From assembly GCF_000017845.1 (NCBI RefSeq), contig NC_010546.1, positions 3,240,001 through 3,272,000 of the forward strand: a stretch of DNA of 32,000 bases. The letters run 5' to 3'. The notes beneath the pieces are model-generated. The model was given only the letters and a program-made list of their open reading frames with translations. It was not told the origin of the DNA and searched no databases. The DNA comes from Crocosphaera subtropica ATCC 51142. GTDB taxonomy: Bacteria; Cyanobacteriota; Cyanobacteriia; Cyanobacteriales; Microcystaceae. Positions within the stretch are counted from its first letter, which is position 1. Each line of letters starts with the position of its first letter. Both the position numbers and the translations under genes were made by a program. Below, in pieces: positions 1 through 31,915 of this stretch.

Positions 1-164
1 ATAATTGTCTCCAAAGTATGCAAGTTTATGAGCATCAGTTACCTTTAATTAGTGAGGAAACCTTACAACCTAAAGTCATTAAGTCCAATGTTGAAGTGAT
101 TGATATTCCTGTTGGCAATGGTCACAACTCAGATGTTGATATTGAGGTAGTTGATCTCGTTTAG
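1..164 (+). CDS. 3' end of an unidentified gene (partial)
   Basis: Frame 3 is open from the window edge (...VIDIPVGNGHNSDVDIEVVDLV*) to TAG at 162-164, and a strong hairpin follows 20 nt later. The fragment is too short to assign a family. Confidence 0.35.
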   Translation, partial: NCLQSMQVYEHQLPLISEETLQPKVIKSNVEVIDIPVGNGHNSDVDIEVVDLV

Positions 165-822: not shown

Positions 823-896
823 GGCGAACGATGGGACTTGAACCCACGAATGCCGGAACCACAATCCGGTGCCTTAACCACTTGGCTACGCTCGCC
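823..896 (-). tRNA. trnH: tRNA-His (anticodon GTG) with genomically encoded G-1
   Basis: The reverse complement reads G-GCGAGCG-TA-GCC-AAGTGGTTAA-GGC-A-CCGGA-TTGTGGT-TCCGG-CATTC-GTGGG-TTCAAGT-CCCAT-CGTTCGC-C. It has a 7-bp acceptor stem (one G-U pair), an anticodon loop with central GTG, and a TPsiC loop TTCAAGT. The extra 5' G pairs with discriminator C73, as is typical of tRNA-His. CCA is not encoded. Confidence 0.93.
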
Positions 897-10673: not shown

Positions 10674-11873
10674 TTAACCTTCCCAGATGCCTAATTCTTT
10701 TAATCCATTGCGTAAACTTTCGGCTGCAACTTGATTGTTTTGGGCTTCATAAAGGCTAACGGCTTTTTTAAAAGCTTCGGAACTTTCAGGGAGTTTCTTC
10801 AACTTAAATAAAACAACCCCTAAGTTTTGATAAGCTGCTGCATAATTGGGACTTAAAGAGATTAATTTTTCATAAATAGCCACTGCGTCAGCTAACTTTC
10901 CCATAGCACTCAAAGTCATGGCAAAGTTATAGTATCCCGTGATAAAACTGGGATCAATTTTGAGGGTGGTTTCATAAGCTTGGGCTGCGTTTTTATAGTC
11001 TCCCATGCTCTGCAAAACTACACCAATATTATTGTAAGCTCCTAACTTTAAGGGTGGCATAATCGGCTGATCAATCGCTTTTTGAAAGTGTTTAATTGCC
11101 TTTTCTGTCTCTTCTTGTTTACTGAGGAGGTTTCCTAAGTGATAATGGAGTTCATATAAAACATGAGTATCGGCTTTATTGGATTTTAAACCCTGTTTAA
11201 ATAATTTGATAGCTTGTTTCTCTTTACCAATTTGAGCGTATAAAGCCCCTAGTTTACTACAAGTATAGGGATCATTCGGATGTTCTTTTATAAACTTTTC
11301 CATCGCCTGTTGAGCGCGATTATACTTATCTAAAGAGGCGATCGCCCCTGGAGTATAACCGTAATGAAACACAGTGATAGCAGGAAGATCAACAATTTTC
11401 CAATGACTTTCTTTTTTTATTAATTCACTGACACTATCATCAATAATGGCATGATAAGGTCGGGAAAAACTGACCTCTGGATGTTTCCGAAATAAACGAG
11501 AGACTAAAGAATAGGGAGACTGAGAAGAACCAATTTCATGACGAACTAAATTAACCACTAAATTTTCATCTTTATCGATGGCTTCTTTGATTTGTGGTGC
11601 TACTTTTTTGTTTAAAACTTCATCCGCATCTAAAATTAAAACCCAATCACCTGTAACATATTTTAATGCCTCATTTCTGGCCTCTGCAAAATCATTGCCC
11701 CATTCAAATGTCGGTATATTGGCCCCAAATTTTTGAGCAATTTCTACGGTTTTATCCGTTGATCCTGTGTCCATAACTACTATTTCGTCAACAACATCTT
11801 GGACACTTTCTAAACATTTGGATAGGGTTGCTTCTTCATTTTTGACAATCATGCAGAGGCTTAATTTTGTCAT
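10674..11873 (-). CDS. Family 2 glycosyltransferase with C-terminal TPR repeats
   Basis: LSLCMIVKNEE...MDTGSTD...ILDADE in the GT2 core, followed by several TPR-like repeats (A..Y..AL.L.P). ATG at 11873; the track ORF opens at TTG 11885. Confidence 0.88.
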   Translation of the reverse strand: MTKLSLCMIVKNEEATLSKCLESVQDVVDEIVVMDTGSTDKTVEIAQKFGANIPTFEWGNDFAEARNEALKYVTGDWVLILDADEVLNKKVAPQIKEAIDKDENLVVNLVRHEIGSSQSPYSLVSRLFRKHPEVSFSRPYHAIIDDSVSELIKKESHWKIVDLPAITVFHYGYTPGAIASLDKYNRAQQAMEKFIKEHPNDPYTCSKLGALYAQIGKEKQAIKLFKQGLKSNKADTHVLYELHYHLGNLLSKQEETEKAIKHFQKAIDQPIMPPLKLGAYNNIGVVLQSMGDYKNAAQAYETTLKIDPSFITGYYNFAMTLSAMGKLADAVAIYEKLISLSPNYAAAYQNLGVVLFKLKKLPESSEAFKKAVSLYEAQNNQVAAESLRNGLKELGIWEG

Positions 11874-11890
11874 GATGACTCCCAATATTT

Positions 11891-12646
11891 CTACTTCTTA
11901 CGTTGAGGAAAGTGGTCGATCTTAGCAATACCATAAAAGATGAGTTCCTTTTTACGGATACGAACCCGATCCACTTTTAATTGTGTTCCGTCTAAGGCAA
12001 ATTTATCTAAGTCTAGCAAGTTATTTACATGATCAATCAAAGATTTTCCTAAATTTTTCGCTTTCTCATCCCCTTTATAGGTGACGTTGACAAATTGAAT
12101 TTTGCGACGATCTAACACTTCAATTTCTGAAGTCATGTCTAGGTTCACCGTTTCACCAGTTTTCCCTAGCTGAATTTGACTTCTGAGAGTCAATGATTTA
12201 TCTTCATTGACTAGCATTTCTGTTTTTTTGAAGTTTAACGCCTGTCCTTCGTACTGTAAGCGTTGCAGCTTTTCGACAACAAAGGGGGTATTAAAGGAAG
12301 TGGTTAAGTCTTCTTCGGTGAGAACAACTCGCATGGTTGCTTGAGTGGGTTGTCTTAGTTTGACCTGTCCTTTGAAAATGGCACTAAAATCAATCGACAC
12401 CGCTTCGACATAGAGTTCCATCCCGTCGATGCGTAGGCCGTTGTACATCAGCATTCCATTACCGATGAAGTCAAAACCGTCCACACTGCCTTGTAATAAC
12501 TTGGCAACGGGTTCGGCCCTCACCATGGCTTCTATCTTACCGGTTCGCTTGAATAAAGCTGCGATCGCGGTACTCACTGCTTTACTGACGATCTGATCGC
12601 CACCTTGATTGGGAAAAGGAAGGGTTCCAAACACAACTGCTGTCAT
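11891..12646 (-). CDS. Conserved hypothetical protein (possibly DUF2993/LmeA-like)
   Basis: 251-aa ORF with host-like composition and a HIP1 site inside (12561). It is tightly packed upstream of the GT2 gene. The family assignment is from memory only. Confidence 0.75.
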   Translation of the reverse strand: MTAVVFGTLPFPNQGGDQIVSKAVSTAIAALFKRTGKIEAMVRAEPVAKLLQGSVDGFDFIGNGMLMYNGLRIDGMELYVEAVSIDFSAIFKGQVKLRQPTQATMRVVLTEEDLTTSFNTPFVVEKLQRLQYEGQALNFKKTEMLVNEDKSLTLRSQIQLGKTGETVNLDMTSEIEVLDRRKIQFVNVTYKGDEKAKNLGKSLIDHVNNLLDLDKFALDGTQLKVDRVRIRKKELIFYGIAKIDHFPQRKK

Positions 12647-13623: not shown

Positions 13624-14853
13624 ATGAATGTTAGCCAATGCTTACTGTTTAGAAAAAAAGATAACCCTAATGGTGGTGCTACTTTGTTAGAACTATTACT
13701 GGGAAGTGCTTTAATGGCTTTTGTGGTTAGTATGGCAGGATGGGGATTAGTACATATCCTAGCAACGGATCAAAAAGCATCAGCAAAAGAGACGATTCAA
13801 TATAATTCCAATCGAGCTTTAGAATTTCTAACAGATGAAATAAAACTAGGAAGAAAAATAGACTCTGATGCGGTTGCAGCCTTAGCTGAGGCTCCTGATT
13901 TTACGCTTCCTGATGGAGCCAAACCTATTGTTGTTTTTCAAGTTCCTGATGTTCCTCAACGAGTGATTTACTATACAAGACCAATTGAAGAGGGAGAGGT
14001 TTGGGAAGGACCAGATGTGCTTGAACGATGGGGACCTCGCTTTAATGAGGAAGGTCAATATGATGAAACCGAAATTAATAATCCTGAAAATTGGGAGTCT
14101 TCTATCTTAATTGATAGTATTGATAACACAGCACACACCCCTACTTGTGACACAGATTGGCAAGCTAGTAACCCTAATTCAACTGAAGGATTTAACGCTT
14201 GTGTTAATTCTGAAGAAAAACTGGTAAAACTTCATTTAGCCACTACCATAGATAATCCTACTTGGCATAACGAGATTAATTATCAAGTTGAAACGACGGC
14301 TTTTGCTAGAAGCAACCTAACCCAAGGATTTACTGAGGATACGCCTATATTCAGTGTTAGTAATAAAAAGTTAATGCTTGAAAAACCAGCAACTGTCAAG
14401 TTTGAAGTCTTAGGAGGTGAGATTACTTGTGGTGCTGGAGGGGTAGAAATTCCTGTGGAAACCAATCTTTATATTGATGAAACTAAACACAGTTGGGATG
14501 GTGATTCTCCCTTAAACTTACCTAATCAATCAGCAGGAACAACCTTTGATGTAGAGTCGATCGCAGGAAATGGTTCAATTTGTAATAAACACAATCTAAC
14601 TGCTTCTAGTGCTGATCCAGACAGTCCACAGCTTGAAGTTCTGGTTAATGGAGATCCCGTGCCGGATGTTACCCCTTTTGCTGATCAGAATACCATTGAA
14701 TTCTTTTTACAAGAGTATATTAAGGATGGAAAAATTAACATTGCTGAAAATCAAGTTATTTATCTGTTTGAACTAGGATCACGAGACAAAGGATCTTCAG
14801 CTTTTGATCTACAAGATAATGTTGTCCTAGCAACCGTTGAGAGTGCTAATTAA
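13624..14853 (+). CDS. Prepilin-type N-terminal cleavage/methylation-domain protein, PilW-like minor pilin or pseudopilin
   Basis: 409 aa. Class III signal: KKDNPNGG-ATLLELLLGSALMAFVV, with Glu at +5 after the predicted cleavage. It is followed by ...NSNRALEFLTDEIKLGRKI, reminiscent of PilW. Confidence 0.75.
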   Translation: MNVSQCLLFRKKDNPNGGATLLELLLGSALMAFVVSMAGWGLVHILATDQKASAKETIQYNSNRALEFLTDEIKLGRKIDSDAVAALAEAPDFTLPDGAKPIVVFQVPDVPQRVIYYTRPIEEGEVWEGPDVLERWGPRFNEEGQYDETEINNPENWESSILIDSIDNTAHTPTCDTDWQASNPNSTEGFNACVNSEEKLVKLHLATTIDNPTWHNEINYQVETTAFARSNLTQGFTEDTPIFSVSNKKLMLEKPATVKFEVLGGEITCGAGGVEIPVETNLYIDETKHSWDGDSPLNLPNQSAGTTFDVESIAGNGSICNKHNLTASSADPDSPQLEVLVNGDPVPDVTPFADQNTIEFFLQEYIKDGKINIAENQVIYLFELGSRDKGSSAFDLQDNVVLATVESAN

Positions 14854-15847: not shown

Positions 15848-16013
15848 TACTTATAAAATTAATCTAAATCATCATTAATTATCTATTATTTATTAGAGCT
15901 TGTCAATTATTTTTTTAATGATAACTGTAAGATATTGTGAATTTAAAACACTTATTTTATCATCAAGTATAACACCTTAAAATTTTATGTCTTTACCTTT
16001 GCGTTAGTTTTAA

Positions 16014-16048
16014 GCTGATAGCTGACTGCTGATAGCTGAATACTGACA
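16014..16048. repeat. Heptamer tandem repeat GCTGAnn x5
   Basis: GCTGATA-GCTGACT-GCTGATA-GCTGAAT-ACTGACA, in the spacer between the giant membrane-protein gene and lipA. Confidence 0.85.
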
Positions 16049-16089
16049 TCTTGCAGTCTAAACTGGCAATTTATATGTTTACTAGCTTA

Positions 16090-19000
16090 TTAATCCCATG
16101 TTTCAAATTCTTGCATCCAATGATTAATTAGGGTGCTAATTTGAGTTCGTCTATTTTCAAAATTAGCAGCTATCCAAATAAATGTTAATCCTAATAGTAA
16201 ACCGATAATCCATTTTAACAGAGGATAACTAAAACTAACAATGACTAACTGATAAAAAACAGTGATTAAAAACGTGATCGTTCCATTAAATAAAAAACCA
16301 CGGGTTTTGAACCCTAAACCAATAATAATTAAAATAAATCCTAGCACCCCAGGAATAATTCCTGTTTCTCTGTAAAATAACAAGGAAACCATACCAACAA
16401 TTCCTGTGGCTATCAAACGAAGAGAATGTCTGACTGATTTTCCTTCTTCTCTTTGACAATAGGGTTCAAACACAATAATTGATAAAAGAGATAAACACAA
16501 TAAACTTGAATATAATAATAGGGATAATCGATCAACTGCACTTATATTATTATAAATAGCAACATTAATTAACAGTAAACTAGGATAGAATAAACGGGGT
16601 CTATTGGAGAGTTTGGAGAGAATACCATAACCAATAGAAGCAACCAGTAGAGTAATCGAATTGAAGCTACTAATAACTCCCAATAGAGGTAACGTAAATG
16701 CTAATAGATTCCAGGGTCTTTTTGACCATCCCCATTGTCTCCAAGGAAGAGTATAAATCACAATACTTAATAAAGAAAGGATAGAGCCTATTACATTAGA
16801 CAATAGAACAGAAGGAAAGCTTAAAAACCCATAAATAGTTGTTCCTCCCCCCTCTATAAATCCTAGATAAACCCAAATTTCTCCTTGTCTTTTGTCTAAA
16901 AAATTACGTCCTTCTAAAATAGCATATTGAGTTAAAAATAGTCCAGCACCTAACCCTATTAATTGTTGTGATTGAACAGGATATAATAAAGAGAATCCTA
17001 AACAAATACTACCGAAAATCCAATGTAAATGAGCAACAATTTTTAGCTCTCTGGTGGTTAAATAAAGATAGGAAGATAACCAAGGAGAAGCGAGGCGATA
17101 GCAATACATTATTCCTGTTGCTAATGCTGCCATACTTAAACATTTATCTCCCCAAGGTAAAGGCGAAATCTGATAAAATAAGAGTTCATAAGCAGAATAA
17201 GAAATAATAACAAGTGCTAGATAAATTAGGGGTTTAAACTTTTCTTTTCTGCGTCCAACTCCTATAATAATTAGGGCTAAACCCAGGGAAATTAAGCCAG
17301 TAAAATGATTAAAGAAATTCCACCGTAATGCCGTTCCTAATGCTCCATACAAAAGCGGTAAAATATGTAGACTACTTAAATATTGCGTTTCTCCTGTTCT
17401 TTTTTGCCACCATTCTCCAATGACTTGAAATAAAATACCTAAAACAATATTGATAAAAGCTAATAAGATCAAAGACTGACTCAACTTAGTTGTAATATTA
17501 ATTGTTAATAATTCCAACGTCCATCCTAACGTATAAAACATTAAATTATTAGGCTGTTTTTTAGTTCGATAAAGAATCCCTAGAAACAAAATACAGATCG
17601 CTACAATAACTGTTATAGAAGGATTCATGTAGTCCCAATAAATAGCAACAGAATGTAAAGTTAAAGTTGTTAATATCAAACCACAGATTATCATTCCCCA
17701 AACATCAACGACTTTTCTATAAACCTTAGCTAAGGATTGAGGTTTTTCTTTTAAATAACTCCAAACTAACCAAAGAGTCATTAAGGTGATACTATCGCTT
17801 ACTATCCAGATAGGAATTATGGATAAATCAAAAACTTCTATAACTTTTAAGAGGATAAGAGAACGGCAAAATATGATCATACCAACAGTTATCAATGCTG
17901 TAAAAAAATAAGGTAAAAAATAACTATGAATAAAAAGTAATGTCGTTCCCGTTGTCGAAGTAATAATTCTCGTTGGTAAAGGATTAGGATTTAAAAATTG
18001 TACAATTAAAATAACAATAACACTTGACCATAAAAAGACATTTTGTCTTGGATTTTGCCAACTCCGATAAGCCATACTTATCATAATCAGATTAAGGGTA
18101 ATTAGTAAAATGAGATCATTATTTAAAAGATAATCCGTGGATAATCGAAAAACAGTAAGAAAGATAATGTTGACTGTACATAACGTAATTCCCCATAAAT
18201 CTAATGCTTTTTTATAGTAATCAATAGAATTGCGTTGATAATAGTTAAGAAGATGATAAAGAATCCAAAAGATAGTAGCAGTAACTGATGCTAATAATGA
18301 CCAATATAGCCAAAATTGCTCTCCATACTTCAAACCATTATCTTCTAAAATAACAACAATTAATTCTAAGAAAAATCCAATGGTAATAAACCCTATACTA
18401 ACCTGCTTAAAAATCTGGGTTTGTACTACCATTAAAATGGTAGCAATTCCTAATTCTATCCATCCCCATGATGGTAAGGATAAAGCTGGAAGAGGCACAA
18501 CGGCTAATACTAATATGCTATACCATAATGATAATTTATTTTCTTCAGTCGTGGGTTGCCAACTACGATAAGTAACACTTCCCATTAAAATAACAGATGA
18601 AATTAAAACATTGGTTGTTGAAGTGTAAACTAAAGAAATATCAAACAATCTAATTAAAGTAATTAGAGATAAAATATAGGCATAACCATCAAAAGTTTGA
18701 GCATAAATAAACCCTAACTCTGACGTATTATCACTCAAAACATGGCGAACAAACCATAATAATAGGGTAATAATAACTCCTGATAGTATCCATAAAGAAG
18801 CAGATAAATTTAAAATATATAGATAGAAGAAAATTGAAGTTAATCCTAAACCAACAGTAATAATGACTGAATATAAATGACGTAAATATCGAGTATTGAT
18901 AATCATCAATATAGTGCCAATGACTAATCCAATTAACCGAGTTTCTGGAAAATAAACAGTTAATGCTTGTGTGAGACATATGGCAATAACACTTAATTCA

Positions 19001-21042
19001 CTAGCTAATTTTCTTCTCGGTACATACCAAATTGCGATCGCCGTTAACAAGCAAGGAACTAATAGCCAATTTAACCCCCAAAAAGATGAATTCACAGGCA
19101 ATTGAAACCATAATAGTCCATAGGATATAGTAGCTAACACTAATCCAATATTCCAGGTATTATAATTAATTAATTTGAGCAAAGATTCTTCAGAAAAAGT
19201 GATCAAAGATATTACAATCTCAGCCATCATTAACCCTAGTACAATTAGTGACCAAAGATTGATAGAAAGATCAGGGAAATAATAATTAATAGCAGAAATT
19301 ACTGTGAGAAGTACACCAATATGAGTTAATAAAGCTAATGGTTTTATAAAGAAATGTCGATTATGTTTGAGTTGGTATTTTGTTTCATAAGCTAATGTCA
19401 AGCTAGATAACATTAAATTAACGGTTCTAACTAGGGGATTGATTAAACTAATAGCTGTTAAAATAATTCCAAATAAAAAAGCTAACTGGCTGCTAAAATT
19501 ATATAATTTAACCTGATCTTGATCAATAAAAAAATGTCGTCCTAATACGATAAAAAATAAGAAAGGAAAAAGACCAACACTACTTAAAACAAAAGGATGA
19601 CTATTAGTGTTAGTCAAATCAATAATATTAGTCCATACAGTTTGAAGAATCGGTAAACGAACCATTAACCAATGAACTTGTAAACCGATGAGAAAAATCA
19701 AGATAAAATCACGCCGTGAACCAGAGATTTTAAAATGTTTTCCTAACCAAGTGATTGCCAACAAACTAATAGCGATCGCTTGACTGGGAATCACAAAAAC
19801 AGATAATAACCATCCTAGGGTTAATGTCCCACTCCCTAACCATTTCCAAGGGGTTTTGGGAGGTGATCGCCATCCCATTAACCAACCACATAAACTAATT
19901 GCTAAACCTAATTGAAAAATATTAACTTCAGCAATAAAAATAGCCCTCACTAAAAGAATCATCAAAGCATAAATAATAATCGCCTCAGTCAAACTAAAAG
20001 GCAAAAATCTTTTATTATTTATCTCAGTGTTTTTAGGAGAGATTAATGTAATAATTGTTGTGGCAATCACCCCTACATAAGTAGCAATTAAAGGAATTCC
20101 TGGGAGAGTCCATCCCCAGTGTAAATACGTTAAACCTAAATGATTTAATAACGGCAAAGAATGAGAACTAGATTGAGAGTTATCCTTAAATAACTTAATA
20201 GTTAATATTGTTAAAGATAGACTGCCGATTAACATTCCAATTAACCCTAAAAAAGTATGCCAGAGGGGAAAAGTATCCATGGCCAAGAAATTAATCGGAA
20301 CTAATAATAAAGTAACAATCCGTAATGCTTGGGTTGTTAATCTTAAATTTGCTTGTTTGCCTGTCCACCAACTAGCCACCCCAAACCCTAATGTATATAA
20401 CCAAAGAATGCCATATTGTAGAACCGCAGGAAACGTCTGCCACCAATTTGCTGCGATGACTCCCGAAGAAACCACCACCATAAACACCCCTAATAACAGT
20501 AACCAAATAACACTTAATTCTGCCATTAAGGATTGAATAATTTGGGGAATACTAGGAGTATTTCTCCGTTGATTACCAACCGTTGAAACTTTAGATTTAG
20601 AAGCCGATAAAGAGGGGATTAAAAATTGTTTAGTGGGGGGAACAGTTTGAAGCGGAACAGTCCGAACAGCACAAGTTAACTCTTTCTGTGCAATGTTTTT
20701 AACCTGTTCATGATTTAATAATCCTAATTGTAACCAACGATCTAATCCTTGTAATATACAGGGGTTAGTTGCTTCAATTTTAACTGTTAAATTAAATAGT
20801 GTTTCATCAGAAATACAATCAACCTCTTGTAAAACTTGTAATTGTTTAATTAAATTGCTAATACTTAGAGTCGTTTTAAAATTAACTTGAAACGAATCAT
20901 TACTACTAATAAGTCTAGCAGGAACTCTCTGTTCAGAAATCAAGCCTAAATCTAGCCAATATTGCCACCCTTCTAACAATTCAGAGATAGCTGTTTTTTG
21001 AGTGATTTGAATAGAAATGGAGTGTTCCCTTGGCGATGACAT
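16090..21042 (-). CDS. Giant (1650 aa) polytopic membrane protein of unknown function
   Basis: An uninterrupted 4953-nt ORF in AT-rich DNA with an ATG start. A soluble N-terminus of about 165 aa is followed by almost continuous hydrophobic helices. Internal ~165-aa repeats are described in the findings. Confidence 0.9.
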   Translation of the reverse strand: MSSPREHSISIQITQKTAISELLEGWQYWLDLGLISEQRVPARLISSNDSFQVNFKTTLSISNLIKQLQVLQEVDCISDETLFNLTVKIEATNPCILQGLDRWLQLGLLNHEQVKNIAQKELTCAVRTVPLQTVPPTKQFLIPSLSASKSKVSTVGNQRRNTPSIPQIIQSLMAELSVIWLLLLGVFMVVVSSGVIAANWWQTFPAVLQYGILWLYTLGFGVASWWTGKQANLRLTTQALRIVTLLLVPINFLAMDTFPLWHTFLGLIGMLIGSLSLTILTIKLFKDNSQSSSHSLPLLNHLGLTYLHWGWTLPGIPLIATYVGVIATTIITLISPKNTEINNKRFLPFSLTEAIIIYALMILLVRAIFIAEVNIFQLGLAISLCGWLMGWRSPPKTPWKWLGSGTLTLGWLLSVFVIPSQAIAISLLAITWLGKHFKISGSRRDFILIFLIGLQVHWLMVRLPILQTVWTNIIDLTNTNSHPFVLSSVGLFPFLFFIVLGRHFFIDQDQVKLYNFSSQLAFLFGIILTAISLINPLVRTVNLMLSSLTLAYETKYQLKHNRHFFIKPLALLTHIGVLLTVISAINYYFPDLSINLWSLIVLGLMMAEIVISLITFSEESLLKLINYNTWNIGLVLATISYGLLWFQLPVNSSFWGLNWLLVPCLLTAIAIWYVPRRKLASELSVIAICLTQALTVYFPETRLIGLVIGTILMIINTRYLRHLYSVIITVGLGLTSIFFYLYILNLSASLWILSGVIITLLLWFVRHVLSDNTSELGFIYAQTFDGYAYILSLITLIRLFDISLVYTSTTNVLISSVILMGSVTYRSWQPTTEENKLSLWYSILVLAVVPLPALSLPSWGWIELGIATILMVVQTQIFKQVSIGFITIGFFLELIVVILEDNGLKYGEQFWLYWSLLASVTATIFWILYHLLNYYQRNSIDYYKKALDLWGITLCTVNIIFLTVFRLSTDYLLNNDLILLITLNLIMISMAYRSWQNPRQNVFLWSSVIVILIVQFLNPNPLPTRIITSTTGTTLLFIHSYFLPYFFTALITVGMIIFCRSLILLKVIEVFDLSIIPIWIVSDSITLMTLWLVWSYLKEKPQSLAKVYRKVVDVWGMIICGLILTTLTLHSVAIYWDYMNPSITVIVAICILFLGILYRTKKQPNNLMFYTLGWTLELLTINITTKLSQSLILLAFINIVLGILFQVIGEWWQKRTGETQYLSSLHILPLLYGALGTALRWNFFNHFTGLISLGLALIIIGVGRRKEKFKPLIYLALVIISYSAYELLFYQISPLPWGDKCLSMAALATGIMYCYRLASPWLSSYLYLTTRELKIVAHLHWIFGSICLGFSLLYPVQSQQLIGLGAGLFLTQYAILEGRNFLDKRQGEIWVYLGFIEGGGTTIYGFLSFPSVLLSNVIGSILSLLSIVIYTLPWRQWGWSKRPWNLLAFTLPLLGVISSFNSITLLVASIGYGILSKLSNRPRLFYPSLLLINVAIYNNISAVDRLSLLLYSSLLCLSLLSIIVFEPYCQREEGKSVRHSLRLIATGIVGMVSLLFYRETGIIPGVLGFILIIIGLGFKTRGFLFNGTITFLITVFYQLVIVSFSYPLLKWIIGLLLGLTFIWIAANFENRRTQISTLINHWMQEFETWD

Positions 21043-21106
21043 GAAAAAGTCCTAACAGCAGTTTTCAAGTAGGTCTATCAATATTTTAGGTCAATCCTCA
21101 ATTATA

Positions 21107-21127
21107 CTGTTGCCTGTTGCCTATTTC
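21107..21127. repeat. Heptamer tandem repeat CTGTTGC x2 (+1 degenerate)
   Basis: CTGTTGC-CTGTTGC-CTATTTC, located 65 nt upstream of the giant gene start. Confidence 0.7.
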
Positions 21128-21189
21128 CTTAAAGCGATCGCCTATGTAGCTCACGAGCAGGAGAACTGTTATAGTCAACATTTTAATCC

Positions 21190-21217
21190 AAAAAAAATGG
21201 GTGAGTTGGACTCACCC
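21190..21217 (-). terminator. Rho-independent terminator of chlP
   Basis: On the minus strand, GGGTGAGT-CCA-ACTCACCC is followed by T8 (plus-strand A-run 21190-21197). It lies 29 nt after the chlP stop codon. Confidence 0.9.
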
Positions 21218-21245
21218 TAACACTTGACTTAATCAGATAAAAACA

Positions 21246-22636: not shown

Positions 22637-24550
22637 TTAAGAATCTAAATACTCCTTAAATTTCTTTCTTAATTGTTCAATGCTCAAATCTTTGCTTAAA
22701 AACTCCACAAACGCTTGACCAAAGGCCCAAGCATTGTCTTGAATCTTTCCAGACGTATCTAATAATAATGGCCATAACGATAGTAAATCAAACTTTTGAT
22801 GATGATCATCATCTTCAAACAAACAAAACAGATCATAAGCCATTTGCAGTTTACCAATGACAATGGGTAATTGTTCGACGGGAATCTGTTCAGCTAAGGC
22901 ATAAGCTAACCCAGGAGAACCGGTACTTAAGGTAGAAATAAACTGTAATACAGGACTTTTTAATAAAGCAGTTATCCCTTGGGTGGTACTCAGTCTTAAA
23001 GTACAAGTTTCAATAATTTTAGTGGCAGCAACGGATCGCGCTTTTTGTTGTTGTAAAAAACGGGCTAACCTTAATTGTTTCGACGGTTCAATTGATTCTA
23101 ATAACGTATTCGTTAAAGCTTCTACCCCCCAACTATCTCGGTTTGTGGTTACGTCACTGGTAACCAGGGGTAAAACGATGTCGTATTCTTCCCCAAATAC
23201 CTCCATACGGTATGTTGTTGCCTCTCTGATACTTATTTCTTTGGGTAAGGTTCCCTGTTGCCAGTTATAAGGAGGTTGCCACTCTCTAATGGGTCGTAAG
23301 CGATCCACTTGGGTTACGATGACAATGATCGGTAAGTCTGCAATGTCTTCTTTAACCGCCTTAAGAAAGGTCATATCAATGTCTAAGGAGGGATCAAGGG
23401 CAGGGGTAACTAATAGCAATAAATCAGCCTTTGTACAATACTTTAACACCTGTTCTCGGAACTCAGGACGGTTAATTTGTTCATACCCCGGCGTATCCCA
23501 AAGGGTTAAAGAGTCCCCTGTTGGACTGTCCCAGTGATAAGCAGTAAAATCATCGGTACTGGGTAAAATATCAACTTCTGCTTTGTCTGTTTTAAATAAG
23601 GTATTGATCAGGCTACTTTTTCCGGCCCCCGTTCGTCCTGCGAGTAAAATATTAATGGGTTTGGCTTCTATTTCTTCAACTGGTTTGGCTTTTGCAAGGA
23701 TGTCTCTGAGGGTTTCGGTTTTAGCAGTAGAAGGACTTTTTTCTTTGACGGATAAGGAGTCTGAAGGAAGAAGATTTTTGTCGCTGTAAAGGGCGATCGC
23801 TTGTTGGGCCAGGGTTTTTAAAGCGGTTTCTCGGAAGGTTTGCCCTAAATTCACTAATAATTGTTGATTGGCTTGTTTTGTCGATTGTAAGCTAGTTTGT
23901 CTGGCGATCGCTGCAGCCGGGTTGAGTATCCATTGACTCCAGTTCCACACTCGCCAGAGTTTACGGGCATTGGGTTCTAATTTTTGATACACTTCATAGG
24001 CTTGGTATGCTTGGGCGATACTCACTTGAGTTAGGACAGGGGATAATTTTTGCATCCAGCGATCAAGATCGTCGACAGTTCCTCGGATCAGTCCGTATGC
24101 TTGGGGAATATAGATATTGAGTAACGGATATTTGATTTCTGGGTGATAAATTTGGGCGATCGCACTGACTAAATTTTGACACCGTTGCCAAAAAATTGCC
24201 CAGTCTTCCCAAAAGGGTGGATCATTGCGAGTTTCTTGGATAATCTCGCCTAGAATACTCTCTATCTTATTCAAAGTTTCTTTATCCCCAACGGTTGCAG
24301 CCATTTCTTTTTGTTCGTTATCAACTTCTTCGTTAACTTGAGTGATTAAGGTTTCAATTTGTTGTTCTACGGGTTTAGTCCATTTCACCAATAACCAACG
24401 CCAACCCAATAACATTAAGATAAAAATACCCCAAATCCAATTAATTCCCCATTGATGAATTTGTAATCCTGCTGCAATAATAAAAAAACTAACACTAATA
24501 ACTAGGGGACTGGCTAATACGAGCCATTGCCAAGATTTTAATTTAATCAT
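22637..24550 (-). CDS. Membrane-anchored P-loop GTPase (Era/MMR_HSR1-like domain in the middle of the protein)
   Basis: 637 aa. Two N-terminal TM helices, G1 motif LLAGRTGAGKSSLIN, G3 motif LWDTPGY and a G4-like TQVD, followed by an extra C-terminal domain of about 170 aa. Confidence 0.85.
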   Translation of the reverse strand: MIKLKSWQWLVLASPLVISVSFFIIAAGLQIHQWGINWIWGIFILMLLGWRWLLVKWTKPVEQQIETLITQVNEEVDNEQKEMAATVGDKETLNKIESILGEIIQETRNDPPFWEDWAIFWQRCQNLVSAIAQIYHPEIKYPLLNIYIPQAYGLIRGTVDDLDRWMQKLSPVLTQVSIAQAYQAYEVYQKLEPNARKLWRVWNWSQWILNPAAAIARQTSLQSTKQANQQLLVNLGQTFRETALKTLAQQAIALYSDKNLLPSDSLSVKEKSPSTAKTETLRDILAKAKPVEEIEAKPINILLAGRTGAGKSSLINTLFKTDKAEVDILPSTDDFTAYHWDSPTGDSLTLWDTPGYEQINRPEFREQVLKYCTKADLLLLVTPALDPSLDIDMTFLKAVKEDIADLPIIVIVTQVDRLRPIREWQPPYNWQQGTLPKEISIREATTYRMEVFGEEYDIVLPLVTSDVTTNRDSWGVEALTNTLLESIEPSKQLRLARFLQQQKARSVAATKIIETCTLRLSTTQGITALLKSPVLQFISTLSTGSPGLAYALAEQIPVEQLPIVIGKLQMAYDLFCLFEDDDHHQKFDLLSLWPLLLDTSGKIQDNAWAFGQAFVEFLSKDLSIEQLRKKFKEYLDS

Positions 24551-30208: not shown

Positions 30209-31915
30209 ATGATATTTCGTATCTTAAGAAAACAGTTATCTTATCGACAAGTTGCGGTTATTATTGGCCGATTACTGATTATCGAGTTTGTATTATTGGG
30301 TTTTGGTATATTAGCAATCAGTAAACATTATTATACCTATGAACATCATAGTTTTTCTCAATTGCAAAGTATAGAGCATACCAAAGTTTTTCCGACATTA
30401 CCGTTAGCTTTATCGTATGCCATAACTAATAATCAAACTGCTCAAATTAATGATATTTTGAATGCTGATTATGGTTTATGGAAATTAGTCATAACAGATC
30501 CAGAAGGTAAAAAAGTAATTACTTATTCTCAAAAAAATCTTGAACAAGAAATAGGTTTCATAGACAATAGATTACCAGAAAATCTTAACAGTTATTCTTA
30601 TCACTTACTTATTAATCCTTCTTCACCGAACGCTCAAGATTATTATTTTGGAGACAACCAGAGCCTTAATAAGTTAGATGAATTCATCAATTCCAAAATG
30701 CTACTGGGTCGAGTTTATTATATTGGAAATATTTCCTATAATTTTCAACAAGAATTATTACAGTGGCTAGGAAATCCTTTTGCTAATAATAGTCGTTTTC
30801 CTATTTATAATTTAACAATATTATTATTTATTATTGGCGGATTATTTATTTGGAGTTTTAGTGAGTTTTTCTTAGCGTATCGACTGTTGACCCATAGGGA
30901 AAAAGAACAATTATCCCAAAGACTGAAATTGGAAAAGGAATTAGTCAAACAAGAAATTGAGAAAAGACAAATCGCTGATCAAAATCAAGAAATTTTCAAA
31001 AATAAGCAAATTCAATTACAAAAAGAAATAACGATACTTCAAAATAACTTAAAAGAAAAAATTGCTCAAAATTCACGCTTAATTGAAGAGAGAGAAAAAG
31101 AACAAGAAAAATTAGAGGAATTAGAAAATAGTCAAACTCAAAAAATCAAGAATCTTCAAACTATTATTGAAGAATATGAAAAAGAAATTTTAATTTTAGA
31201 AGTGTGGCAAGATAAATCTCAAGAATTAGAAGAAATAAAACAAGAAAAAAATAACTTATTAGTAGAATTATCAGAATACGAAAACTTAGAGAGAGAAAGT
31301 AAAAAACAAATTAAATCCCTTAGACACAAAATTGAACTCTTGATGAATCAAAAACAAGAAGCTGAACAGAAGATAAATGATTTACAGGAGGTTCAATTAT
31401 CTAATAAAACATCTATCCAAGAAAGGGAAGAAATGATCCAACAAGAGTTTGAAAGACAAATTAATTTAGTCAAGTTAGAATCAGAATATGCGTTTGAAGA
31501 AGCGCAAAATATAGAACAAGAAAAAGAAAAAATACTGCTACAAAATAAGGCAATTCGAGAACAACTTAACTCCGAAATTGAAAAAAATAAATATTTAGAA
31601 TTTGCCTTAGAAAGCTATAAAAAAGAAAAAGATGAGATCACTCAAGAATTGACCATCAATAATAATAGTAATTATCCGTCTATACCTACATCTTATTTAA
31701 CTAATATATCGAGCAGAAAAGCCATTAAAGCCTTTCAGAAATTAGGATTTGAAAAAGATAGACATAATGGAGATCATTTTATCCTAAAGAAAACAGAAAC
31801 TAACACCATTACTGTTCCTATTCCTCATCCTCGACAAGAACTCAATCCTCTCACGTTGAAAAATATTTTAATACAAACAAACACTTGTTTAGAGGATTTT
31901 CTAGATAATTTGTAA
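30209..31915 (+). CDS. Two-TM, coiled-coil protein with a C-terminal HicA (YcfA-like) toxin domain
   Basis: 568 aa. TM1 at aa ~14-37, a ~155-aa extracytoplasmic segment, TM2 at aa ~197-222, and an E/K/Q-rich coiled coil at aa ~225-480. The C-terminal 70 aa, SSRKAIKAFQKLGFEKDRHNGDHFILKKTETNTITVPIPHPRQELNPLTLKNILIQTNTCLEDFL, follow the HicA pattern (..ALEKLGFE..RQKGSH.....G..TTVP.H...L..GTLRSIL.QAG...EEF). Confidence 0.85.
   Translation: MIFRILRKQLSYRQVAVIIGRLLIIEFVLLGFGILAISKHYYTYEHHSFSQLQSIEHTKVFPTLPLALSYAITNNQTAQINDILNADYGLWKLVITDPEGKKVITYSQKNLEQEIGFIDNRLPENLNSYSYHLLINPSSPNAQDYYFGDNQSLNKLDEFINSKMLLGRVYYIGNISYNFQQELLQWLGNPFANNSRFPIYNLTILLFIIGGLFIWSFSEFFLAYRLLTHREKEQLSQRLKLEKELVKQEIEKRQIADQNQEIFKNKQIQLQKEITILQNNLKEKIAQNSRLIEEREKEQEKLEELENSQTQKIKNLQTIIEEYEKEILILEVWQDKSQELEEIKQEKNNLLVELSEYENLERESKKQIKSLRHKIELLMNQKQEAEQKINDLQEVQLSNKTSIQEREEMIQQEFERQINLVKLESEYAFEEAQNIEQEKEKILLQNKAIREQLNSEIEKNKYLEFALESYKKEKDEITQELTINNNSNYPSIPTSYLTNISSRKAIKAFQKLGFEKDRHNGDHFILKKTETNTITVPIPHPRQELNPLTLKNILIQTNTCLEDFLDNL

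Follow-up and report, generated by a model that had tools for sequence, protein, structure and literature searches.

A cyanobacteria-only family of giant polytopic membrane proteins with a variable array of six-helix modules

The window analysed here is a 32,000-nucleotide stretch of Crocosphaera subtropica ATCC 51142 (contig NC_010546.1, positions 3,240,001 to 3,272,000), and all positions below refer to it. On its minus strand it carries a gene which, as the first-pass annotation proposed and the list of open reading frames bears out, encodes a protein of 1650 residues (Table 1). The GC content is low (0.30-0.35). Between this gene and chlP lies an intrinsic-terminator-like element consisting of a GC-rich stem of 8 bp followed by T8 (21217-21199, minus strand). 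The separate transcription unit assigned to the gene at first reading stands in so far as this hairpin divides it from chlP; its promoter, however, is not supported by a consensus scan, which finds no promoter-like site in the gap 21043-21245. A TATAAT at 21106-21101, spotted by eye, is the sole promoter-like feature. An Rfam search of the window returns one tRNA, located elsewhere, and nothing else. Conserved synteny had been looked to for a context, but among 84 loci compared no gene neighbour is kept across orders. The neighbours chlP and lipA adjoin the gene within Crocosphaera only, and two genes situated ~4-5 kb away in the same window, one GT2-TPR and one LmeA-like, do not keep their association with it in homolog loci. 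An upstream ORF recurring near homologs was discarded as a pentapeptide-repeat artefact. Toastrack, PspC, PspA and LiaRS-type two-component genes are absent beside the gene in the window and in four annotated homolog loci.

Table 1. Coordinates of the giant-protein gene, its encoded segments and the upstream hairpin
Feature	Position	Strand	Basis
Whole gene	16090..21042	(-)	ORF list; polytopic membrane protein of 1650 aa and its stop codon
Soluble domain at the N terminus, presumably cytoplasmic, aa 1-125	20668..21042	(-)	AF2 secondary structure, hhalign, shuffles, homolog deletions
Disordered Ser/Lys/Pro-rich linker, aa 126-169	20536..20667	(-)	AF2 pLDDT, dN/dS, conservation
TM1-4 block, most conserved part, DUF2157-like, aa 170-286	20185..20535	(-)	39% of columns >=90% conserved; sub-threshold DUF2157
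TM5-17 block, unique sequence, aa 287-623	19174..20184	(-)	DSSP helices; no significant repeat
Module 1, six TM helices, family-wide orthologous copy, aa 624-779	18706..19173	(-)	Profile 100% probability; HMM envelope 628-777, 161 bits
Module 2, six TM helices, extra copy, aa 780-942	18217..18705	(-)	HMM envelope 785-938, 131 bits
Module 3, six TM helices, extra copy, aa 943-1107	17722..18216	(-)	HMM envelope 948-1105, 131 bits
Partial module 4, merging into C-terminal block, aa 1108-1166	17545..17721	(-)	Profile positions 1-54, 92.5%; shuffle z=7.2 vs module 3
C-terminal block, aa 1167-1650	16093..17544	(-)	DSSP: ~17 TM helices plus terminal amphipathic helix; highly conserved
Intrinsic-terminator-like hairpin and T-tract, 3' of chlP, upstream of giant-protein gene	21189..21217	(-)	GGGTGAGTCCAACTCACCC then ATTTTTTTTG

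The protein has at least 841 homologs, its relatives occur in at least 497 species genomes, and full-length orthologs share 30-79% identity. A profile of the repeat module described below retrieves 242 clusters among 1.84 billion (1.84e9) protein representatives, all of them from this family. Of the genomes carrying a relative, the 80 listed are cyanobacterial except for two MAGs, which are probably mis-binned, and the only named divergent family member is a cyanobacterium. The phyletic survey proposed earlier thus yields a family restricted to cyanobacteria, the two suspect MAGs aside; judged from these sequence relationships, the 1650-aa protein is a real, conserved member of a cyanobacteria-only family of giant polytopic membrane proteins.

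Searches of the full protein against Pfam and NCBIfam give no match at E<=1, no PADLOC anti-phage defence family is matched at the same threshold, and a PDB sequence search with the family profile returns nothing. Over 32 diverse members, the Pfam and NCBIfam searches show only a sub-threshold similarity to DUF2157 (PF09925) and five single-member chance matches; a smaller set of 6 homologs searched against Pfam gives nothing beyond that DUF2157 similarity. When residues 80-256 are searched in isolation, the DUF2157 model aligns its positions 35-109 with aa ~178-252 (26.5 bits, E=5.7e-6); it matches 7 of the 32 members at E<=1, and the best homolog reaches 26.6 bits (E ~1e-5), some homologs spanning profile positions 3-113 of 146. 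All these scores, including that of the giant protein itself, lie below the Pfam gathering score of 32.4 bits, so that no clear HMM match to a characterised family, the outcome that the first-pass annotation had named as fatal to its view, is present. Database names of family members are limited to 'hypothetical' and 'DUF2157 domain-containing' (NCBI, UniRef), cluster look-ups give no link to any model strain, and no description of the family was found in the literature on DUF2157, PF09925, membrane solenoids or cyanobacterial repeat membrane proteins.

The N-terminal domain consists of three beta-alpha units of ~37-42 aa (~aa 6-41, 45-80 and 81-121), for which AF2 predicts the secondary structure E8-16/H19-32, E52-59/H61-73 and E82-90/H96-121; the last unit bears a motif, L..GLD.WL.LGLL..Q, that is found family-wide. 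The duplicated motif seen in this domain at first reading is real, since the first and third units are related both by shuffling (z=7.8) and by hhalign (80-115 versus 6-41, 93.6%). The duplication is probably in fact a triplication: residues 3-50 and 45-93 align with a probability of 92.5%, and the first two units give a shuffle z value of 3.8. Some homologs lack one unit (deletion of 3/8-48) or two (deletion of 6-79), and the domain ranges from one to three short beta-alpha units across the family. A SHOCT-like reading of the motif was dropped, the isolated units having no Pfam match even at E<=10, and a PDB sequence search with the domain gives one chance match only (E=2.5). The linker that follows has a pLDDT value below 50 throughout, contains no column conserved at >=90% and evolves near neutrality in comparison with Crocosphaera orthologs (dN/dS 0.5-1.36).

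From aa ~170 onwards the protein is, as previously described, almost wholly transmembrane, with hydrophobic helices following one another in series. DSSP analysis of the AF2 models identifies 55 helices, 53 of which have a best-15-residue Kyte-Doolittle hydropathy of at least 1.0. This count, obtained from AF2 and hydropathy, corresponds to ~54 predicted membrane passes, probably with both the N and C termini inside. The K+R totals of successive loops alternate (39 versus 16), showing a positive-inside bias whose register shifts at a non-transmembrane helix (464-476). Interhelix loops are only 2-15 residues long, so nearly the whole mass of the protein would lie within the bilayer. The structure was predicted as two overlapping halves, and the half-models combine pLDDT values of 79.6 and 82.8 with pTM values of only 0.47 and 0.53. 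Foldseek searches of the PDB with both half-models place soluble alpha-solenoids (TPR/HEAT proteins and designed toroids) on top, with probabilities up to 1.0 and more than 1000 aligned columns but TM-scores of only ~0.05-0.25. These solenoids were rejected as homologs, TM-scores of ~0.1 reflecting local hairpin-stack likeness only. The membrane proteins listed (Na+-PPase, KATP channel and DdvA) have probabilities of at most ~0.3 and TM-scores of at most 0.1, and neither search returns a membrane fold at a meaningful TM-score. Together with the empty Pfam, NCBIfam, PADLOC and PDB sequence searches, this agrees with the earlier failure to assign the protein to any family of transporters, polymerases or glycosyltransferases; GT-C glycosyltransferases, O-antigen ligases and polymerases, DUF2339 and other large polytopic families likewise give no HMM or fold match.

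The middle third of the protein is a tandem array of three six-helix modules of ~163 aa and a partial fourth, all contained within aa ~624-1166. Of the six helices of the unit, the partial copy comprises the first two, together with the LYRTKKQPN loop. All ten motifs quoted in the first-pass annotation lie at exactly the residues given there, and the periodicity of ~163-167 aa that it deduced from them is genuine, being significant by autocorrelation, BLAST, shuffling and profile-profile comparison. Indeed, the top autocorrelation peak of the protein falls at an offset of 165 (z=4.0), self-BLAST pairs occur at offsets of 158-167 and 323, and profile-profile probabilities between modules are 99.9-100%. 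When the sequence is shuffled with its composition preserved, the module pairs stand out at z values of 4.8, 9.5 and 9.0, and the comparison of module 3 with the partial copy at 7.2; the observed scores are not reached in any of 500 shuffles. The statement that the protein is built from tandem modules holds for the middle third, where three copies are full and one is partial, but not for the other two thirds, in which no repeat is significant and the pooled module profile reaches a probability of at most 0.2%. These flanks, an N-terminal block (TM1-17) and a C-terminal block (about the last 17 helices), are unique in sequence and more highly conserved than the rest of the protein. Two raised shuffle scores outside the array are out of register. 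A candidate repeat suggested at aa 1314 finds no support, and another at aa 624 is linked to the repeat, but as the start of module 1 rather than as an outlying copy. A faint, in-register match joins residues 517-606 to 680-762 (z=3.9 at an offset of 163; hhalign probability 7.5%, P=0.0047); an older, highly degenerate 'module 0' may lie at aa ~461-623. No long tandem repeat is present at the DNA level in the window gene.

The main point, absent from the first-pass annotation, is that the number of modules depends on lineage and, as read from homolog sequences, ranges from 1 to 4. A module HMM built on single-copy seeds counts one full module in 45, two in 53, three in 19 and four in 3 of 120 homologs, and an exhaustive search with the module profile finds at most five matched stretches per protein. 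Beyond the last full module, 35 of the 120 carry a weak partial copy (12-19 bits). When homologs are aligned with the window protein, insertions and deletions come in discrete sizes (-325, -163, +169/+176 and +334 aa): two-module homologs lack module 2 as a gap of 162-163 aa, and a Crocosphaera relative (P0011) has lost module 3 (deletion of 948-1112). In one-module homologs the single copy is closest to module 1 of the window protein, and module 1 is, by sequence comparison, orthologous family-wide. Another homolog (P0020) has 79% identity between its second and third module copies, and its gene contains a tandem repeat with a period of 495 bp (2.1 copies, 86% matches, 0% indels), a fresh in-frame tandem duplication of 495 bp. 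As these comparisons show, the array changes length in steps of exactly one unit (495 bp), which is either duplicated in tandem or deleted, in both cases in frame. With six helices the module is even-numbered and, we infer, has both ends on the cytoplasmic side, so gain or loss of a module would never flip the topology of the C-terminal block.

All module copies are shown by their substitution patterns to be under purifying selection, the extra copies being more relaxed than copy 1. Compared with Crocosphaera orthologs, dN/dS is 0.09-0.50 in all transmembrane regions, with values of 0.09-0.27 for module 1, 0.21-0.41 for module 2 and 0.28-0.50 for module 3. Across 32 diverse members ~100 columns are invariant. 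In the alignment, conservation is concentrated in TM1-4 and in the C-terminal ~19 helices: columns conserved at >=90% make up 39% of TM1-4, 22% of the C-terminal block (120 of 543 columns over aa 1108-1650) and 11% of module 1. The invariant residues of TM1-4 are E175, S192, S193, Q209, Y210, N251 and D256, with N251 and D256 at the outer end of TM3. In the C-terminal block, conserved residues are found both within the membrane (E1177, N1198 and Q1206) and next to it (H1338/H1340/W1341 and R1538/H1539/R1542), the latter forming HxHW and RHxxR motifs that are predicted to be juxtamembrane on the cytoplasmic side. Deep within helices 38, 39 and 16 are invariant residues of polar or charged character. 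Glu, Asn, Gln and His residues that are invariant and sit inside the membrane would suit binding, but equally transport or catalysis.

Taken as a whole, these data may be explained by a modular giant membrane protein of cyanobacteria in which an array of hairpins joins two conserved end blocks, a reading to which we assign a probability of roughly 45%. In the predicted structure, helical hairpins appear to pile up in antiparallel fashion, much as in an alpha-solenoid embedded in the membrane. The mechanism that could go with it is tentative: the protein would act within the plane of the membrane, and the two end blocks would carry the activity through intramembrane E1177/N1198/Q1206/H574 and the cytoplasm-side HxHW and RHxxR motifs, the candidate activities being sensing and the binding of a partner, a cofactor or an ion. 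Between the end blocks, the module array would serve as a spacer or scaffold of adjustable length that sets their in-plane distance or the curvature between them, and the tethered N-terminal domain would dock cytoplasmic partners. As a spacer of this kind, the protein would be neither a classical enzyme nor a transporter of known type. It is also conceivable, with considerable doubt, that the family represents an undescribed architecture class, a single-chain membrane alpha-solenoid of ~42-60 transmembrane helices whose in-plane length is tuned in evolution by six-helix modules, and which might serve as a ruler, fence or curvature element specific to cyanobacterial thylakoid or plasma membranes.

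The most serious alternative, itself unlikely, is a channel, transporter or mechanosensor. The C-terminal block, perhaps together with TM1-4, would form an ion or substrate pathway around E1177/N1198/Q1206/H574, and the modules would be a lipid-embedded lever or blade sensing tension or curvature, analogous but not homologous to that of Piezo. The charged and polar residues buried in helices 38, 39 and 16, the extended array of repeated transmembrane bundles with minimal loops and a copy number that is variable yet under selection all suit such a protein. However, Foldseek retrieves no Piezo, channel or transporter at a meaningful TM-score with either half-model, none of the 32 members matches a Pfam or NCBIfam transporter, and the units have six helices where those of Piezo have four.

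An envelope-stress sensor or anchor resembling LiaI/LiaF is improbable. TM1-4 would sense membrane perturbation, and the N-terminal domain or the loops would recruit a PspA-family protein (Vipp1/IM30 or PspA in cyanobacteria). The resemblance of TM1-3 to DUF2157, which stays below threshold and is seen in the window protein and 7 of 32 homologs, the place given to DUF2157 in the LiaI-LiaF-TM domain (PMC11237479) and the exceptional conservation of TM1-4 point this way, but the argument takes two weak steps and covers less than 5% of the protein. Moreover, neither the window nor the annotated loci hold Toastrack, PspC, PspA or two-component neighbours, no neighbour is shared across orders, and ~50 further helices and the conserved C-terminal block are left unexplained.

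We consider very improbable a highly divergent membrane enzyme (a GT-C-type glycosyltransferase, an O-antigen/EPS polymerase or ligase, or an acyltransferase) or lipid flippase with catalytic His, Arg, Glu and Asp at the membrane interfaces. HxHW and RHxxR on the cytoplasmic face, N251/D256 at the outer end of TM3 and the GT2-TPR and LmeA-like genes ~4-5 kb distant are consistent with it. Against it, none of the 32 diverse members matches such a family in Pfam or NCBIfam at E<=1, no PDB sequence or fold matches, none of the extramembrane loops is large enough to house the active site usual in GT-C enzymes or ligases, and the GT2 and LmeA genes do not stay beside the gene in homolog loci. Finally, a spurious or decaying hydrophobic ORF with a periodicity due to low-complexity composition, as the bare 'hypothetical' annotation and the low GC content might suggest, is effectively refuted by full-length orthologs in hundreds of species, dN/dS well below 1, the ~100 invariant columns and the shuffle controls, which reject a composition effect.

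If the predicted topology holds, the modular giant protein would be among the most membrane-spanning single polypeptides known, with ~54 passes, and ~60 in its four-module relatives. Differences of whole multi-helix modules between orthologs of a polytopic membrane protein are rare, and the variation in module number seen here amounts to a natural experiment on the tolerance of membrane proteins to insertion of even-numbered helix bundles. Conserved in at least 497 cyanobacterial species genomes, the family would give access to unexplored membrane biology in this phylum.

Comparison with known systems places these features in context. DUF2157 is a 'predicted membrane protein' family of unknown function in Pfam. 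An arrangement of the kind expected for it, a short cytoplasmic N-terminal helix motif followed by a transmembrane cluster, can be made out in aa ~81-286 of the giant protein, where ~50 helices follow that the model does not cover. In some homologs the match extends as far as TM1-3, starting at the helix motif that comes last in the N-terminal domain. The model reaches neither the module array nor the C-terminal block, and the label 'DUF2157 domain-containing' describes less than 5% of the protein. TPR/HEAT solenoids such as Ski3, Ctr9 and the designed toroids share with the models a local stacking of hairpin on hairpin and, like the array, change length through tandem duplication of units. 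They differ in that the helices of the giant protein are hydrophobic, of membrane-spanning length and joined by positive-inside loops, and no TPR or HEAT Pfam signature is found in the full protein or in the 32 members. Given the hydrophobic spanning helices, TM-scores of 0.1-0.2 and the missing TPR/HEAT signal, the likeness to solenoids is one of packing, an analogy rather than homology. In Piezo, which has 38 transmembrane helices per protomer, the blade consists of nine repeated four-helix units. The giant protein resembles it in its very high number of transmembrane helices, its partly serial helical bundles, its short loops and its extended intramembrane array; it differs in its six-helix units, in a number of units that varies between orthologs and in belonging to a prokaryotic, cyanobacteria-only family. 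No Pfam match to Piezo is found, and no Piezo chain is among the matches listed in either Foldseek search. With LiaI-LiaF-TM, a four-helix stress-sensing domain in which a comparative-genomics study unifies DUF2157 with the transmembrane regions of LiaI and LiaF (PMC11237479), the shared trait is the conserved four-helix N-terminal block TM1-4, a link made through DUF2157 in that study only; the giant protein differs by having no Toastrack domain, no lia/psp context and ~50 extra helices. Piezo has been described as having the highest count of transmembrane passes (PMC9256749). Its per-chain count would be exceeded by the ~54 predicted here.

The open reading frame on the minus strand encodes 1650 residues, as the first-pass annotation had claimed from the sequence, and all ten motifs that it had located in the product lie at exactly the residues named. 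A Kyte-Doolittle scan shows dozens of hydropathy peaks, and two overlapping AlphaFold2 models (aa 1-1200, mean pLDDT 79.6, pTM 0.47; aa 451-1650, pLDDT 82.8, pTM 0.53) together place 55 helices within aa 164-1650, connected by loops of mostly 2-15 residues. The succession of hydrophobic helices, likewise described earlier, runs from aa ~170 onward; the best 15-residue hydropathy is at least 1.0 in 53 of the 55 helices and at least 1.5 in 45. Lys+Arg content alternates strongly in successive loops (39 vs 16), with a single register shift at a short, weakly hydrophobic helix (464-476). From these predictions and the positive-inside rule we infer that the chain crosses the membrane about 54 times and has its two termini in the cytoplasm.

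Features of the giant protein (aa) and of the window (nt, strand), with dN/dS from codon alignments with six Crocosphaera orthologs
Feature	Position	dN/dS	Remark
Giant gene	16090..21042 (-)
N-domain beta-alpha elements	aa 8-32, 52-73, 82-121		AlphaFold2
Linker	aa 126-169	0.5-1.4	44 residues, predicted disordered
N-block	aa 170-623	0.17-0.31	includes TM1-4
Candidate module 0	aa ~461-623; ~19174-19662 (-)
Module 1	aa 624-779	0.09-0.27
Module 2	aa 780-942	0.21-0.41
Module 3	aa 943-1107	0.28-0.50
Partial fourth module	aa 1108-1166
C-block	aa 1108-1650	0.15-0.31
Invariant polar residues	N251, D256		outer end of TM3
Invariant polar residue	H574		helix 16
Invariant polar residues	E1177, N1198, Q1206		adjacent helices 38 and 39, mid-membrane depth
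Invariant residues	H1338/H1340/W1341		cytoplasmic juxtamembrane side
Invariant residues	R1538/H1539/R1542		cytoplasmic juxtamembrane side
Hairpin and T8 after chlP	21217-21199
TATAAT	21106-21101
Giant gene stop to lipA	15848-16089 (-)
Promoter-like site ahead of lipA	15906-15878
AGCTGAT repeats	16013-16046
GTPase-domain gene	22637-24550 (-)		637 aa
Possible pilin-like gene	13624-14853 (+)		409 aa
GT2-TPR gene	10674-11885 (-)
LmeA-like gene	11891-12646 (-)
AT-rich ORF	30209-31915 (+)		568 aa
tRNA gene	823-895 (-)		63 bits

The top autocorrelation peak of the single sequence falls at offset 165 (z=4.0), and BLAST between 170-aa segments returns pairs offset by 158-167 and by 323 residues, all inside aa 672-1169. 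Against composition-preserving shuffles the three module pairs score z=4.8, 9.5 and 9.0, and module 3 against the partial copy that follows it z=7.2; none of 500 shuffles reached any of these scores, and most control segments stayed below z=1.5. In a 41-sequence family alignment, hhalign gives 99-99.9% probability across aa 618-1181 and nowhere above 50% elsewhere in the transmembrane region. A pooled module profile matches the three full copies at 99.9-100% and the partial fourth at 92.5%, the next best match in the protein having a probability of only 0.2%. Taken together, the shuffle, BLAST and profile evidence defines three complete copies and part of a fourth, amounting to one third of the protein. 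The proposed ~165-aa periodicity is thus a real repeat, with significance far above shuffles and profile probabilities of 99-100%, yet it does not extend beyond that third: the suggested outlying copy at aa 1314 finds no support, and the one at aa 624 is the beginning of module 1.

Each unit comprises six helices, and the YRSW/YRTKK motifs occupy the cytoplasmic loop following helix 2. Upstream, aa 517-606 faintly resemble aa 680-762 of module 1 at offset 163, exactly in repeat register, with z=3.9 in shuffles and an hhalign P of 0.0047 (probability 7.5%); the stretch around them is a candidate for a degenerate 'module 0' of ancient origin. No long DNA-level repeat was found in the window gene. 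The N-domain has repeats of its own: hhalign relates aa 3-50 to 45-93 at 92.5% and aa 80-115 to 6-41 at 93.6%, and in shuffle tests the comparison of units 1 and 3 reaches z=7.8, that of units 1 and 2 z=3.8. With the AlphaFold2 elements, these values make the duplicated N-terminal motif of the first-pass annotation real, and probably a triplication. The linker that follows evolves near-neutrally.

The key fact beyond that annotation is that module number varies from ortholog to ortholog, modules being duplicated in tandem, or lost, in frame. With a clean module HMM of 157 positions, one full module is counted in 45 of 120 homologs, two in 53, three in 19 and four in 3, strictly tandem in every case with a spacing of 7-8 residues. 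Relative to the window protein, indels in the repeat region are quantised (-325, -162/163, +169/+176 and +334 aa). Module 1 is the orthologous copy family-wide and later copies form separate groups, duplication and loss being recurrent: identity among copies is 22-26% in the window protein, 49% in module pairs of the homologs P0038 and P0058, and 79% between copies 2 and 3 of the homolog P0020; the Crocosphaera relative P0011 has lost module 3. The P0020 duplication is a fresh, clean tandem one, its gene carrying a 495-bp tandem repeat (165 codons; 2.1 copies, 86% matches, no indels). At the locus of this four-module homolog (L085), DDE and ISL3 transposase genes flank at 1-1561 and 10979-12225; such mobile elements might promote rearrangement. 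N-domain indels in homologs measure -41/46 or -73 to -75 aa. Homologs carry 1-3 beta-alpha units in the N-domain and 1-4 transmembrane modules, and the two numbers vary independently, three-unit/one-module and one-unit/one-module homologs both existing, so that units are probably not paired one-to-one with modules.

Homologs number more than 841, and no fewer than 497 species-representative genomes contain a relative. Cyanobacteria account for all of the 80 loci listed except two, which lie in MAGs labelled otherwise, and among ten deep-branching relatives the sole named one is a cyanobacterium. Of the two MAGs, one is assigned to Crocinitomicaceae (6.3-kb contig; the copy is 43% identical to the query, as are those of Microcystis loci) and the other to Actinomycetota (49.6-kb contig; 38%). 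Both carry cyanobacteria-type copies, for which contaminated bins, not horizontal transfer, are the most likely source. When 1.84 billion representative proteins were searched exhaustively with the profile, the module turned up in just 242 clusters, each of family-sized proteins or fragments in which no more than five stretches were matched; it is thus confined to this family. Synteny is not kept past close relatives, and literature searches found no published description of the family.

The GC-rich 8-bp hairpin and T8 downstream of chlP support a separate transcription unit, as previously proposed; for the promoter, a consensus scan of the 203-bp gap between chlP and the giant gene returned no promoter-like site, and a TATAAT was spotted there by eye. 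No terminator-like hairpin separates the giant gene stop from lipA, into which transcription may read through; a strong near-consensus promoter-like site (TTGACA-17-GATAAT) lies ahead of lipA, as do short 7/14-bp AGCTGAT tandem repeats. The gene that immediately precedes chlP on the minus strand encodes a protein with N-terminal transmembrane helices and a central GTPase domain (Pfam MMR_HSR1, E=3.5e-14; Dynamin_N, E=2e-8), which may be a membrane-anchored dynamin-like GTPase. Another neighbour, with 0 Pfam matches, has the N-terminus GGATLLELLLGSALMAFVV, which looks like a prepilin-type cleavage/methylation segment; the protein is possibly a minor pilin or similar to a pseudopilin. The gene for an LmeA-like phospholipid-binding protein is followed directly by one for a GT2 glycosyltransferase that has TPR repeats fused at its C-terminus; the two may form an envelope-related pair, which is not kept beside the giant gene at other loci. 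A very AT-rich stretch (GC 0.28-0.29, AT skew +0.30) encodes N-terminal hydrophobic segments, a long Glu/Lys/Gln-rich coiled-coil-like middle and C-terminal ~60 aa (KAIKAFQKLGFEKDRHNGDHFILKK...) that we take to resemble a HicA-type toxin domain, an unusual fusion if correct. The sole Rfam match in the window is a tRNA gene.

The anatomical and evolutionary account of the giant protein we hold at a probability of about 0.9. It includes purifying selection, under which the extra modules are constrained more loosely than module 1, and conservation massed at the two ends: columns at least 90% conserved among 32 diverse members make up 39% of TM1-4, 22% of the C-block and 11% of module 1. Nearly all of the mass would lie inside the bilayer, and no signature of an enzyme or transporter is present; we tentatively favour an in-plane role. 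On this reading, the end blocks would hold the activity (partner, cofactor or ion binding, or sensing), the module array would act as a spacer or scaffold of adjustable length, and the tethered N-domain would be a docking element on the cytoplasmic side. Each module would make an even number of passes, starting and ending in the cytoplasm, so that its gain or loss would preserve C-block topology; presumably this is why variation in number is tolerated.

None of Pfam, NCBIfam and PADLOC matches the full-length protein at a threshold as loose as E<=1, and the family profile matches no PDB sequence. With no clear HMM match to a characterised family, the protein indeed cannot be placed among transporters, polymerases or glycosyltransferases. 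Foldseek with both models returns solely soluble TPR/HEAT solenoids and designed toroids, the few membrane-protein rows having low probability and TM-scores of at most 0.1. Solenoid homology is rejected, the matches combining high local probability with TM-scores of just 0.05-0.25; the likeness reads as hairpin-on-hairpin packing in the models. A channel or mechanosensor with a Piezo-like lever is rather unlikely, no Piezo chain appearing among the matches listed.

Scanned alone, aa 80-256 match DUF2157 over aa ~178-252 (E=5.7e-6) at 26.5 bits, below the cut-off of 32.4 bits; 7 of the 32 homologs show the same sub-threshold match, which accounts for the name 'DUF2157 domain-containing' in some sources. 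We know of no function for DUF2157. It has been merged into the 'LiaI-LiaF-TM' stress-sensing 4TM domain (PMC11237479), and a LiaI/LiaF-like stress anchor for Vipp1 or PspA is improbable, as the partner genes of that system are absent beside the giant gene, both among the window neighbours and at annotated homolog loci. A very divergent membrane enzyme is more improbable still, the Foldseek matches listed including no GT-C enzyme. The gene is clearly maintained by selection, and a non-functional ORF can be dismissed. That the protein represents a new architectural class has a substantial, if less than even, chance. The family is already catalogued; we class the protein as an internally duplicated polytopic membrane protein, loosely of DUF2157 type, and the weak likeness to DUF2157 at the N-terminal block is its sole tie to any described entity.
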